The position numbers and the translations under genes were made by a program. A DNA stretch of 64,000 bases, taken from assembly GCF_013315695.1 (NCBI RefSeq), contig NZ_CP054353.1; one strand, written 5' to 3'. The DNA comes from Escherichia coli. Lineage in GTDB: Bacteria > Pseudomonadota > Gammaproteobacteria > Enterobacterales > Enterobacteriaceae. Shown piece after piece: positions 5,242 through 15,226 of this stretch (positions are counted from its first letter, which is position 1; every line of letters starts with the position of its first letter). The notes beneath the pieces are model-generated. The model ran no database searches. It was not told the DNA's origin and worked only from the letters and a program-made list of their open reading frames with translations.

Positions 5242-6387
5242 TTAGCGACCACCCATAATGGCAATGTAATCCTGCGTCCAGCGACTGTAGGGAACAAACT
5301 TGCCCCCTTCTGCTATAGGCGTTTTCCAGAAGGCGATTTTATCGAAATAGTTAAAACCGTTTGTTTCACAACCTTTCTCGCCTAATAACGGACTGGCTTT
5401 ACACCCTTGCGGCACTACTGGTAGCGAGCCAAACCAGGCCGCCACATCGCCCTGCACTTTTGGGGTTAATGACCAGTTCATCCATTTGTAGGCGCAAACC
5501 GGATGTTTCGCTTCGCTATGTAGCATGGTGGTATCAGCCCAACCGGTAACGCCCTCCTTCGGGAAAACGGTAGCGACAGGCTGGCCTTCGGCTTTCAGGG
5601 CGTTGGCCTGATAGGGCCATGCACTGGAAGCAACCACACCCTCGTTTTTGAAATCGCTCATTTGCACGGTAGTGTCATGCCAGTAGCGATGGATCAAACT
5701 ATGTTGATCGCGCAGCACTTTCAGCACCGCCTGGTACTGTTCTTCGGTGAGTTGATACGGATCGCTGATGCCCAACTGTGGCTGAGTGGCTTTAACGAAC
5801 AACGCAGCGTCCGCAATGTAGATAGGGCCATCATAAGCCTGAACGCGGCCTTTATTGCTCTTGCCGTCCGGCAGATTCTGCTCAACAAAAACCACTTGCC
5901 AGCTATTCGGCGGCGTCGGGAAGGTTTTAGTGTTGTACATCAGCAGGTTCGGCCCCCATTGGTAAGGTGTGCCGTAAACTTTGCCGCCAACGTTAAACCA
6001 GTCGCCTTTAACCACGCGCGGATCGAGCGCTTTCCAGTTGGGAATCAATGCGGTATTAATCGGCTGCACGCGTTTGCCCATAATCAGGCGCAGCGAGGCA
6101 TCGCCGGATGCCGTAACCAGATCGTAACCCCCTTTGGTCATCAGACTGACCATTTCATCGGAAGTCGCGGCGGTTTTCACATTCACCGCGCAGCCTGTCT
6201 CTTTTTCGAATTGCGTTACCCAGTCGTATTGTTTATCAGTTTGTCCGCGTTCGATGTATCCCGGCCAGGCGATAATATCCAGTCGCCCTTCCGGTTTATC
6301 TAAATTGGTAGGCGGTTCGGCGGCGTGAGCGGTCATTATTGTCATGGTGAGCGCACACAGGCTGCTGCGGGCAAATATCTTGCTCAT
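5242..6387 (-). CDS. ydcS: Periplasmic substrate-binding protein of polyamine-type ABC transporter (381 aa)
   Basis: Signal-peptide-like N terminus; operon synteny with ydcTUV. Confidence 0.85.
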   Translation of the reverse strand: MSKIFARSSLCALTMTIMTAHAAEPPTNLDKPEGRLDIIAWPGYIERGQTDKQYDWVTQFEKETGCAVNVKTAATSDEMVSLMTKGGYDLVTASGDASLRLIMGKRVQPINTALIPNWKALDPRVVKGDWFNVGGKVYGTPYQWGPNLLMYNTKTFPTPPNSWQVVFVEQNLPDGKSNKGRVQAYDGPIYIADAALFVKATQPQLGISDPYQLTEEQYQAVLKVLRDQHSLIHRYWHDTTVQMSDFKNEGVVASSAWPYQANALKAEGQPVATVFPKEGVTGWADTTMLHSEAKHPVCAYKWMNWSLTPKVQGDVAAWFGSLPVVPQGCKASPLLGEKGCETNGFNYFDKIAFWKTPIAEGGKFVPYSRWTQDYIAIMGGR

Positions 6388-11342: not shown

Positions 11343-12515
11343 ATGCGTCTGTTTTCTATTCCTCCACCCACGCTACTGGCGGGGTTTCTGGCGGTATTAA
11401 TTGGCTACGCCAGTTCAGCGGCAATAATCTGGCAAGCAGCGATTGTCGCCGGAGCCACCACTGCACAAATCTCTGGCTGGATGACGGCGCTGGGGCTGGC
11501 AATGGGCGTCAGTACGCTGACTCTGACATTATGGTATCGCGTACCTGTTCTCACTGCATGGTCAACGCCTGGCGCGGCTTTGTTGGTCACCGGATTGCAG
11601 GGACTAACACTTAACGAAGCCATCGGCGTTTTTATTGTCACCAACGCGTTAATAGTCCTCTGCGGCATAACGGGACTCTTTGCTCGTCTGATGCGCATTA
11701 TTCCGCACTCGCTTGCGGCGGCAATGCTTGCCGGGATTTTATTACGCTTTGGTTTACAGGCGTTTGCGAGCCTGGATGGTCAATTTACGTTGTGTGGCAG
11801 TATGTTGCTGGTATGGCTGGCAACCAGGGCCGTTGAGCCGCGCTATGCGGTAATTGCCGCGATGATTATTGGGGTCGTGATCGTTATCGCGCAAGGTGAC
11901 GTTGTCACAACTGATGTTGTCTTTAAACCCGTTCTCCCCACTTATATTAGCCCTGATTTTTCGTTTGCTCACAGCCTGAGCGTTGCACTCCCCCTTTTTC
12001 TGGTGACGATGTCATCGCAAAACGCACCGGGTATCGCAGCAATGAAAGCAGCCGGGTATTCGGCTCCTGTTTCGCCGTTGATTGTGTTTACTGGATTGCT
12101 GGCACTGGTTTTTTCCCCTTTCGGCGTTTATTCCGTCGGTATTGCGGCAATCACCGCGGCTATTTGCCAAAGCCCGGAAGCGCATCCGGATAAAGATCAA
12201 CGTTGGCTGGCCGCTGCCGTTGCAGGCATTTTCTATTTGCTCGCAGGTCTGTTTGGTAGTGCCATTACCGGGATGATGGCTGCCCTGCCCGTAAGTTGGA
12301 TCCAGATGCTGGCAGGTCTGGCGCTGTTGAGTACCATTGGCGGCAGTTTGTATCAGGCGCTGCATAATGAGCGTGAGCGCGACGCGGCGGTGGTGGCATT
12401 TCTGGTAACGGCAAGTGGATTGACGCTGGTCGGGATTGGTTCTGCGTTTTGGGGATTAATTGCCGGAGGCGTTTGTTACGTGGTGTTGAATTTAATCGCT
12501 GACAGAAACCGATAA
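11343..12515 (+). CDS. ydcO: BenE-family inner membrane transporter
   Basis: Multi-pass membrane ORF; start set at MRLFSIPPP inside the longer track ORF 11286..12515. Confidence 0.8.
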   Translation: MRLFSIPPPTLLAGFLAVLIGYASSAAIIWQAAIVAGATTAQISGWMTALGLAMGVSTLTLTLWYRVPVLTAWSTPGAALLVTGLQGLTLNEAIGVFIVTNALIVLCGITGLFARLMRIIPHSLAAAMLAGILLRFGLQAFASLDGQFTLCGSMLLVWLATRAVEPRYAVIAAMIIGVVIVIAQGDVVTTDVVFKPVLPTYISPDFSFAHSLSVALPLFLVTMSSQNAPGIAAMKAAGYSAPVSPLIVFTGLLALVFSPFGVYSVGIAAITAAICQSPEAHPDKDQRWLAAAVAGIFYLLAGLFGSAITGMMAALPVSWIQMLAGLALLSTIGGSLYQALHNERERDAAVVAFLVTASGLTLVGIGSAFWGLIAGGVCYVVLNLIADRNR

Positions 12516-12516
12516 T

Positions 12517-12541
12517 AAAAAGCGCCATCTAACGATGGCGC
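12517..12541. terminator. Bidirectional stem-loop between convergent ydcO and ydcL
   Basis: AAAAA GCGCCATC TAAC GATGGCGC; T-run on minus strand. Confidence 0.5.
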
Positions 12542-12549
12542 GGCTGGAA

Positions 12550-13218
12550 TTACTTTTTGTTAACGTCAAACATGGTGGCATCGGTCGCCATGTCATCAAT
12601 AACTTGTTTAATATTTTCGAAAGCCATTGGCGTACTTTCGTTATTCAGGTCTTTACCTTCGCCCTGACGAACGACTTTGATAACCGGTTTATTAGTCGCT
12701 GCATCAATCAGCTCACCTTCAAAATAGAGGCGAGTATCCATGGTACGGTGGCCTGTAGCCATTTGCGTCCCCGCAACCACTAATGCAACAGGAACCACTT
12801 CATAGAATTGCAGCCCTTCTTTGCTGGTATCTACACCGGTAATGGCCCCACGGAAAATCAGACTACGCGGCCCAGCGGTGGTAACCAGTGGTTTACGCTG
12901 CGCTATCGCTTCTTTCATTTCGGTGTTGGTATAGTTCAAAATTTTATCCAGAACTTTCTGCCCTACCTGGGTAGAAGGTTTTGGTACCGGATAATAAGTG
13001 ATTGGGTTCCAGACGATGCTGTCATATTTGCTTTGATCAAAACTCGGGTCTACCCAACGTAAAACAGGTTTACCTGTTGCTGAGGTTGTTTCTTTTAAAT
13101 CAGAGTAATTGTTTAAAAAACCAGAATATTTATCTGGCTGGGTGATTTTAGAGGCACAACCAGACAGAGCCAACAAGCCGCATAAAGCTGCAACTTTCGC
13201 AAATGATGTGGTACGCAT
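12550..13218 (-). CDS. ydcL: Lipoprotein YdcL (222 aa)
   Basis: Lipobox LALSGC near N terminus; synteny. Confidence 0.8.
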   Translation of the reverse strand: MRTTSFAKVAALCGLLALSGCASKITQPDKYSGFLNNYSDLKETTSATGKPVLRWVDPSFDQSKYDSIVWNPITYYPVPKPSTQVGQKVLDKILNYTNTEMKEAIAQRKPLVTTAGPRSLIFRGAITGVDTSKEGLQFYEVVPVALVVAGTQMATGHRTMDTRLYFEGELIDAATNKPVIKVVRQGEGKDLNNESTPMAFENIKQVIDDMATDATMFDVNKK

Positions 13219-13520
13219 GAATAGTTTCCTGAGATGATTATATTACTTTTTAAGTTATAGCAAAAAGCACCGCTTCGTGTTGTGGCAAAAAAAGTGTTGG
13301 TGAAAATAAATTTTTCAGCCCCTTTTCAGACGACATAGTCAATGCCGAAAAAGGGGCTAAGTCAATCATCAGTAGTTAAATATCAGTGCGTTAATCTGAT
13401 GAAAAACTTCGACTACCGTGATTAATTTCACATCCTTTTGATTAAAAATATGCTTACCGAAAAGAAGAACAGTAAACCATCTCAGCGTGGGGAATTTTCA
13501 CGCGCTTTGTTCTTACCGGA

Positions 13521-14114
13521 TCATTTTTTACGTGCCAGCATCGTGGCGAAACGCAGTTTAATACGATTACCGTTGGCGTCGGTGCGGTGCAGCTCGCCGA
13601 CGTCTTCATTGTATTTCACCCTCTCCCAGCCTTCGTAATATCGACGTAATTCTCCCTCTTTGAAGGCAAACGGGAAGCCGACGGTACATGGATAATCAGC
13701 GGTATCCATCGCCGCCACAATCAGGTTGTAACCACCAGGTTTAGTGCAACGTTGCATATTGGCAATCAGCCCTGGGATGGTTTTAGCCTCAAGGAACATC
13801 AGCACCACAGTCGAAAGAATAAAATCGTACTGTCCATCAAATGTGAGGTTATTCAGATCAACGACCCGAGTGTGTAAATTATCCAGATTTTCAATAGATT
13901 TAATGCGCTCAACGTTGGCGATACTCATGGCATTTTTATCCCATGCGTCAACATCATAACCATTGGCTGCCAGGTAAAGACTGTTACGACCATTGCCACA
14001 GCCCAGATCCAGCGTTTTACCCGGTTTAACCACTTTCACCGATTCCAGTACTTCAGAGTGTGTGCGGGTTAATTCATATTTATCAGTAAAATAGTTTTCG
14101 TCACGAATGATCAT
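13521..14114 (-). CDS. tehB: Tellurite resistance SAM-dependent methyltransferase (197 aa)
   Basis: SAM-binding motif [15 protein letters not shown]; recognised TehB. Confidence 0.9.
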
Positions 14115-15103
14115 TCTTTGTCCTCTGCTTTCATTAAAACGGCGCGCTCGGTTCTGACTAACAATTTTCCCTGCATCAGAAGCGCAAAAGTACGGATGAG
14201 CAGTATTGCAATAATAAAATTGGTAAAGATAAACAGCGGCACCGCCAGCGTATGGAAAAATCCATTATCGCTGCCACTCCCCAGATGCAAACCGGTGGTT
14301 GCCAGTGCAGATACGCCGAACGAGAAACTCCAGAATGAAGCATTAAATGGCTGGGAGAGATACCATGGCATCAGACGTAGCATAAACAGCAGTTGCAGCA
14401 GTCCATAACCGAAAAGCATTTTCGCCAGCGTGTCACCCTCGCCGCCGTTGACGCTCAGCCAGGCACTACAGGCCACCAGCGCAGGAGCGAGCTGAATGCC
14501 GAGTGATGTCCTCAGTGCCGTGGGTAATTCTCCCGAACTGCGCAGACGCTGCAAGATCACCGGTTCCAGGCTTAGCCATGAGAAAACGCCTGCGCCTAAA
14601 AACACCAGACCGGCGTCGGTGTAGCCCAACGCACCACAGGCCATTGCGCTGATAAAGTTGTTGGCAACTGTCGGCAGATACAGTCCAGGCGTGGTAGCTT
14701 CTTCAGGGTGAGATCCGCGCCATAATCCCGCAGTTTGCCAGGCGGCATAAGCCAACTGAACCACGACACCAAAACTGAACAGGCACACCGCCAGTGGGCG
14801 AAACCACGGAACAAAACCAATCGCCACCAGCATCGTCGTTGCCGGAAACAAACTCACAAAACTGCTCAGCACTGGATGGCGCACTTCTGCCAGCACGCTA
14901 TGCGGAAAGCGTATGAGTCGGGTAATAAATGCGCCAGTCAATAATCCCCAGATGATCATCGCCAGAATCACCAGCCCATCCCCCAACCAGTGGCTGACCT
15001 GCCAAACCTGGCTGGCATAGCGCCAGGCAAATCCCATCCCTATCGTCCCCAACACAATACCAAAGTAGCCTGCCGGCAAATTGAGCACTTTATCGCTCTG
15101 CAT
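14111..15103 (-). CDS. tehA: Tellurite resistance membrane protein TehA (330 aa)
   Basis: Start set at [15 protein letters not shown] within longer ORF 14111..15211; 4-bp overlap with tehB. Confidence 0.85.
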
Positions 15104-15226
15104 CTTCTTACTCATTTTGTTTAATTTATAAAGTATATTTGAAATGCATTTTATGGAATTTTCTCGAGCATAGCCAGAGCCGCAGAATTTGCTACGGTTA
15201 TAGTAAGTCACCTGTGGGAAAACGCT

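Follow-up and report, generated by a model that had tools for sequence, protein, structure and literature searches.

What happens in the spacer between tehB, the last gene of the tellurite resistance operon tehAB, and the following gene ydcL of Escherichia coli? A perfect 10-bp inverted repeat lies within it, and a preliminary description of this DNA proposed either an atypical terminator for tehAB or a palindrome bound by a protein. The best explanation overall is that the repeat encodes a 3'-end-forming (terminator) hairpin of tehAB, a reading that we consider probable. In its broad form, that the hairpin lies at the end of tehAB-sense transcripts, the claim can be made with good confidence; in its narrower form, that termination at the hairpin is factor-independent, it is an even call. 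The window analysed here is a 64,000-nucleotide stretch of E. coli DNA in which the 451 bases around the repeat are 100% identical to strain MS 21-1; among complete E. coli genomes, 5,412 of 5,426 match these bases. K-12 MG1655 has the same hairpin and tail, letter for letter; its hairpin occupies 1502317-1502358, and its tehB-ydcL spacer is without any annotated feature. On the other side of ydcL, IS609 directly follows the gene in K-12 (locus L001, 4662-5001); the window (12515-12550) carries no insertion, and ydcO and ydcL are convergent there with stop codons separated by 34 bp.

The two arms of the repeat, AGCCCCTTTT (13317-13326) and AAAAGGGGCT (13349-13358), are complementary at every position and separated by 22 nt, exactly as previously described. 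Chance occurrence was estimated with first-order Markov simulations of the window, in which perfect 10-mer inverted repeats with a loop of 3-30 nt were counted. Observed were 16 positions at 10 loci per 64 kb versus 2.0 +/- 1.8 in the simulations, and for one such repeat within the 302-bp spacer our own scaling of the simulation gives an expectation of about 0.01. Since perfect 10-mer repeats exceed the simulated expectation, they are enriched in the genome, and the one between tehB and ydcL is no random event.

Folding of the RNA, which had been suggested as a check, yields a stable hairpin on the tehB strand (Table 1). The 42-nt minus-strand RNA reaches -22.1 kcal/mol (z -5.3, with 0 of 200 shuffles equally stable), and a 66-nt RNA including the flanks reaches -25.4 kcal/mol (z -5.9). 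Four C-G pairs follow each other in the lower stem, and the sense RNA thereby offers the stable GC-rich stem-loop by which terminators are recognised. The plus-strand fold is weaker (-15.9 kcal/mol), leaving the tehB strand ahead by 6-7 kcal/mol, because G.U pairs turn into C.A mismatches. The 22-nt loop, which had been thought too large for a typical intrinsic terminator, does not hold as such: in tehB-sense RNA it folds further through a U.G pair and a 6-bp helix, and only a 5-nt loop is left. The hairpin does lie downstream of tehB, as stated before, but not immediately, as it begins 162 nt past the stop codon. The spacer as a whole is also strongly structured as RNA (z -3.9). A direct repeat, ATTGACT, occurs at 13360-13366 and 13337-13343 on the minus strand, 23 nt apart. 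Its second copy, which forms the hairpin's apical loop, is unchanged in all Escherichia while adjacent stem bases vary; this invariant apical CAUUGACUAU is not accounted for by a pure terminator role.

Table 1. Coordinates of genes, hairpin elements and transcript ends at the tehB-ydcL locus (window positions unless K-12 is indicated).
Feature	Position	Strand	Size or remark
tehA	14111-15211	-	
tehB, last gene of tehAB	13521-14114	-	stop codon 162 nt upstream of hairpin
tehB-ydcL spacer	13219-13520		302 bp; contains hairpin
Hairpin	13317..13358	-	RNA read 13358->13317; 17-19 bp stem overall
Outer helix	13358-13348 with 13327-13317	-	11 bp, one being U.G
Inner helix CGGCAU/AUGUCG	13347-13342 with 13336-13331	-	6 bp
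Apical loop UGACU	13341-13337	-	5 nt
Bulge UCU	13330-13328	-	3 nt
Optional flanking pairs	13360/13315, 13359/13316	-	
A/U-rich tail GAAAAAUUUAUUUUC	13302..13316	-	U-rich portion from 7 nt past stem
Mapped RNA 3' ends	13307..13316 (K-12 1502359-1502368)	- (K-12 +)	1-10 nt past stem
TGCTATAAC, putative extended -10 (sigma-S-like) of ydcL promoter	13254..13262	-	downstream of hairpin
ydcL (DUF3313 lipoprotein), next gene	12550-13218	-	ATG 98 nt past hairpin end

Published maps of RNA 3' ends in K-12 bear directly on the question. In the TRS study of Bar et al. 2023 (PMC10687069), a 3' terminus is found on the K-12 plus strand, which is the tehB strand. Its row in the 'LB RNAtag-seq' sheet of Supplementary Data 3 gives a peak at 1502359-1502368 with a dominant position at 1502361 and adjusted p values of 1.5e-14, 1e-18 and 4.5e-28 in three libraries, and it prints the tehB-ydcL hairpin as the upstream fold at -25.4 kcal/mol. 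Two more rows, from other datasets, appear in Supplementary Data 2 of the same study with dominant positions 1502363 and 1502365; the order of the sheets identifies the unannotated row as the Barsheshet MG1655 RNAtag-seq set, and the annotated one comes from the Term-seq sheet of Dar and Sorek or the RNAtag-seq sheet of Melamed. With the coordinate offset convention of the table checked on the thrL attenuator row, the three dominant ends correspond to window positions 13314, 13312 and 13310, which are +3, +5 and +7 past the stem. In vivo 3' ends within about 10 nt past the stem, as looked for at a terminator, are thus seen reproducibly in K-12 data, in three analyses covering at least three datasets, and the 3'-end mapping that had been proposed for this locus was in effect available already as RNAtag-seq ends 1-10 nt past the stem on the tehB strand.

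In the same study the terminus is labelled as premature and assigned to the 5' UTR of ydcL. Its rules give the '5' UTR' label to a 3' end at most 100 nt upstream of a start codon when the 5' UTR is not known, and define a 'primary' 3' end as one within 100 nt of a stop codon (PMC10687069). As the ydcL label is set by a distance rule, it is positional and provides no evidence for a ydcL leader; probably, it represents a misassigned tehAB transcript end. In the consulted parts of these tables no 3' end is assigned to tehB, meaning that none is listed there at most 100 nt from the tehB stop codon, and the consulted parts of the supplementary text of Adams et al. 2021, TERMITe and SMRT-Cappable-seq contain no tehB or ydcL rows.

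The tail behind the stem departs from a canonical terminator. The nine bases past the stem, GAAAAAUUU, are all A/U but one G and are followed by AUUUU, with GAAAAA standing between the stem and UUUAUUUU, and the tail GAAAAAUUUAUUUUC is itself a small palindrome, GAAAA-N5-UUUUC. No U-tract begins 0-2 nt past the stem, where just 2 U are found among the first 8 nt, so the U-tract on the tehB strand is indeed imperfect, as had been remarked. A simple terminator scan (at least 5 T in 8, loop of 3-8) did not call the hairpin because the U-run starts 7 nt past the stem and the stem has a bulge. Hairpin ends with poor U-tracts are, however, common among 'primary' termini such as those of talB, mog and folA in PMC10687069, which makes the hairpin architecture ordinary. 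The word atypical is therefore apt for the tail, with its GAAAAA before the U-run, but not for the loop, which is ordinary and closes into a second helix.

The position of the hairpin relative to the next promoter was assessed in a sample of 80 tehB loci from other species, 32 of which have ydcL next on the same strand; with the window added, this gave 33 spacers. The motif TGCTAT(A/T)A(C/T) is found in 32 of the 33 and ends 33-38 nt ahead of the ydcL ATG. In the window, this element, TGCTATAAC, has a C just ahead of the hexamer and TTAA behind it, and we read it as probably sigma-S-like on the basis of its sequence. Genomic SELEX has placed an RpoS-holoenzyme peak within the tehB-ydcL spacer (PMC5493296). 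The -10 element lies about 55 nt downstream of the hairpin, and a scan for promoter-like sites on the minus strand between tehB and the hairpin found none. The hairpin thus follows the final gene of a transcription unit, on the same strand and ahead of the next promoter, as a terminator would. Given the conserved ydcL promoter downstream and the absence of one between tehB and the hairpin, RNA that ends at the hairpin would most simply come from tehAB, by read-through via a long 3' UTR.

Several other elements were noted in the spacer. The ydcL promoter region is nearly invariant throughout Escherichia, and a conserved TTTTTGCCA (13283-13288, minus strand) stands 23 nt upstream of the -10 hexamer, which is too distant for a sigma-70 -35. 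A sigma-70 promoter using either TTGACT as -35 was rejected, as neither is followed at 16-19 nt by an acceptable -10. Between tehB and the hairpin, a CRP-type palindrome, CGTGATTAATTTCACA (13417-13432), reads TGTGA-N6-TCACg on the minus strand and is a perfect TGTGA-N6-TCACA in K-12 and five other Escherichia lineages; its half-sites are invariant and its 6-nt spacer varies (AATTAA, AATAAA, AATGAA, AATAAG). The count of such sites in the window is not significant (3 matches at no more than 1 mismatch versus 2.2 expected), and inspection by eye revealed no partner promoter or convincing -10 at class I or II spacing on either strand. A promoter-like TTCACA-16-TATGCT on the plus strand (13427-13454) is aimed into the tehB 3' end, that is, antisense; it was discarded as a CRP partner, since its -35 falls within the CRP half-site at the wrong distance. 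The CRP-like site is held by a segment of about 127 bp (window about 13375-13515) that is present in most Escherichia and varies more than any other part of the spacer. This segment is absent in Escherichia sp. MOD1-EC7003 (L002, 3595-3630; spacer 174 bp) as well as in Citrobacter, Salmonella, Kluyvera and others (spacers 125-170 bp). A second hairpin directly past the tehB stop codon (13465-13514, minus strand), AAGAACA...UGUUCUU, folds at -10.9 kcal/mol and is followed by CUUUUCGG. With its CUUUUC it resembles a terminator, but in K-12 it reaches just -3.6 kcal/mol. It was rejected as the real tehAB terminator, being degraded in K-12, absent in MOD1-EC7003 and without a reported 3' end.

Conservation of the inverted repeat was the other check that had been suggested, and the hairpin proved near-invariant in E. 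coli and present in all sampled Escherichia. Of the 5,406 E. coli genomes with a match, 2,980 carry the 77-nt hairpin segment unchanged and nearly all others carry it with at least 95% identity; the whole spacer is more variable than this segment, with 1,842 E. coli genomes at 90-95% identity. Both hairpin and spacer are single-copy, with a median of 1 place per genome (blastn word 11; 5,406-5,412 E. coli genomes), which rules out a dispersed repeat of the REP/BIME, ERIC or MITE type. The variants among the sampled E. coli are two G->A changes, one just past the stem and one in the inner helix, and, in O157, a U->G change together with an additional A; all keep or strengthen the fold, at -25.3 to -26.0 kcal/mol. 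Seven further Escherichia lineages were sampled, among them E. albertii and E. whittamii, and every one keeps the hairpin, at -18.6 to -26.0 kcal/mol and usually with the stronger fold on the tehB strand. In MOD1-EC7003, the 127 bp between tehB and the hairpin are gone and the hairpin is kept about 35 nt past the stop codon. Covariation was not detected among these lineages: 222 of 500 shuffles equalled the 1 double change in 17 pairs, and RNAalifold gave a covariation term of about zero (0.05). Apparent compensatory changes in MOD1-EC7003 and in L003 were dismissed as register shifts or single-side changes. With no covariation beyond controls, the structure within Escherichia is conserved mainly via its sequence.

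Outside Escherichia the sequence is unrelated, yet a hairpin occupies the same slot in most short-spacer genera. Such unrelated hairpins stand between tehB and the ydcL promoter in Citrobacter, Salmonella, Kluyvera, Yokenella, Trabulsiella, Pseudocitrobacter and Atlantibacter. Several of them carry canonical U-tracts, as in Yokenella (GUGCCGCUCUGCCAGAGCGGCAC-UUAUUUUU); the Pseudocitrobacter hairpin reads AAUUACCGGC...GCCGGUAAUU-UUUUUU, and that of Citrobacter has a 14-bp stem followed by GAUCAAAUUUGUG. A position that is retained while the sequence turns over is the usual pattern for terminators. A search of Rfam 15 at a permissive threshold returned only chance sub-threshold matches, the best at 17.9 bits versus a gathering threshold of 85.6. 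The atypical tehAB terminator proposed in the preliminary description is supported by the 3' ends, by the ydcL promoter downstream and by hairpins at the equivalent place elsewhere. The combination that was said to speak against it, no 3' end and no conservation, is contradicted on both counts.

Other explanations for the 3' ends differ in where polymerase would stop and in which transcript would end. It is possible, if doubtful, that the hairpin does mark the end of tehAB but that polymerase stops further downstream, in a Rho-dependent or diffuse manner, and that exonucleases trim the RNA back to a stabilising hairpin. Rho-dependent transcripts, from the work of Dar and Sorek, are said to end at trimmed stem-loops without a U-tract, and here too the U-tract is not adjacent to the stem, the dominant 3' ends are very near to it at +3, +5 and +7, and the 162 nt of untranslated 3' UTR would permit Rho loading. 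Just downstream, the sense RNA from 13250 to 13309 is C-rich and G-poor, with C:G of about 2:1 (GC skew of +0.33 on the plus strand), although this stretch is short. On the other hand, a weak hybrid suited to intrinsic release does exist (A/U but one base, then UUUAUUUU), and termination further downstream would fall inside the ydcL promoter and 5' region. The mapping of 3' ends of Rho-dependent transcripts is treated by Dar and Sorek 2018 (PMC6061677). A premature-termination (attenuator) element within a long 5' leader of ydcL is very unlikely. The '5' UTR ydcL' label in PMC10687069 would fit it, as would an alternative pairing of UUUUUCGGC with GCUGAAAAA that forms a weak stem directly ahead of UUUAUUUU; the main hairpin is, however, much more stable than this stem, the deeply conserved ydcL -10 sits 55 nt downstream of the hairpin, and no promoter-like site lies upstream on the minus strand.

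Alternatively, the hairpin could terminate a separate small RNA, derived from the 3' UTR or born in the spacer, with the invariant AUUGACU loop as a functional motif. This is improbable, and the more specific version of a stable small RNA whose AUUGACU loop, repeated 23 nt upstream, binds protein or RNA and is perhaps tied to the conserved CRP-type site in the Escherichia-specific 127-bp insert is quite improbable. In favour of a small RNA, exponential-phase cells in LB show a robust 3' end, the loop at the apex stays constant where stem bases vary, the spacer is strongly structured, and the conserved CRP-type palindrome lies 60-115 nt upstream. Against this stand the lack of a minus-strand promoter-like site in the spacer upstream of the hairpin, the lack of an Rfam match and the lack of any report of a small RNA at this locus in the literature searched. 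Binding of Hfq requires a U-tail, which is poor at the tehAB hairpin. The sole prediction, 'Ssr15' of Shigella flexneri (PMC4782007), is a purely computational and unvalidated candidate in the same spacer on the opposite, plus strand. A small protein was rejected as well: the start of a 39-aa ATG ORF at 13250-13369 on the minus strand is lost in three Escherichia lineages (ACG in L003, AAG in L004, ATA in L006). Although E. coli has it intact, this ORF, which crosses the hairpin and stops in the ydcL -10 region, is probably no gene. The protein-binding palindrome of the preliminary description, a DNA site for a dimeric or tetrameric regulator of ydcL or tehAB with an only incidental RNA hairpin, finds no support and is scarcely credible. 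Its arms are perfect, it lies about 65-110 bp upstream of the presumed ydcL start (an estimate from the -10 position), and adjacent repeats (ATTGACT twice; GAAAA-N5-TTTTC) could be protein sites. The arm centres are, however, 32 bp apart, G.U pairs make folding strand-asymmetric, changes found in nature keep the pairing or make it stronger and do not hold to a fixed half-site sequence, other genera carry unrelated hairpins with no conserved motif, and 3' ends at the stem base are accounted for by RNA structure.

For the tehAB terminator hairpin, a plausible course of events would be that RNA polymerase coming from tehAB transcribes the 162-nt 3' UTR, that the hairpin then forms, and that the transcript is released in the weak, nearly all-A/U hybrid GAAAAAUUUAUUUU past the stem. 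The hairpin may in this way act as a non-canonical, probably leaky intrinsic terminator. A proximal hybrid rich in rA:dT should terminate poorly, which counts against intrinsic termination. Subsequently, 3'->5' exonucleases would trim the ends to the stem base (+3 to +7) and the stem would protect the mRNA. Just downstream, the sigma-S-type ydcL promoter might be shielded by the hairpin from read-through.

The 3' boundary of the tehAB unit would then be K-12 1502359-1502368, with a 3' UTR of about 205-210 nt, and the published 'premature, ydcL 5' UTR' 3' end is more probably a tehAB end. The hairpin is real, conserved and functional-looking, and it is of a thoroughly known kind that was already visible in published 3'-end maps; it does not imply new biology. 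It adds another E. coli transcript-end hairpin in which the U-tract is displaced from the stem, and it can serve as a test case for terminator predictors.

Comparison with known systems places the hairpin among transcript-end structures. With REP/BIME and ERIC elements that stabilise mRNA 3' ends it shares an intergenic palindromic hairpin able to block exonucleases, but it is single-copy and outside any dispersed family. With small RNAs derived from 3' UTRs that use the mRNA terminator it shares a long structured 3' UTR, a strong hairpin and a reproducible 3' end, but it lacks an internal 5' end, an Hfq-type U-tail and a published RNA at the locus. Trimmed Rho-dependent ends likewise combine a stable hairpin that has no U-tract next to it with 3' ends at the stem base; the tehAB hairpin differs from them by the U-rich run at +7. 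From intrinsic E. coli terminators such as the thrL attenuator and the ydcL terminator in the TRS table, it differs in the five A's (GAAAAA) before the U-rich run, in its long stem of 17-19 bp with a bulge, and in its distance of 162 nt from the stop codon, which is a few tens of nt in the others. Like these terminators, it closes an operon with a GC-rich stem-loop in sense orientation, has RNA 3' ends a few nt past the stem and an A/U-rich tract behind it, and shows a rapid turnover of sequence between genera while its position is retained.
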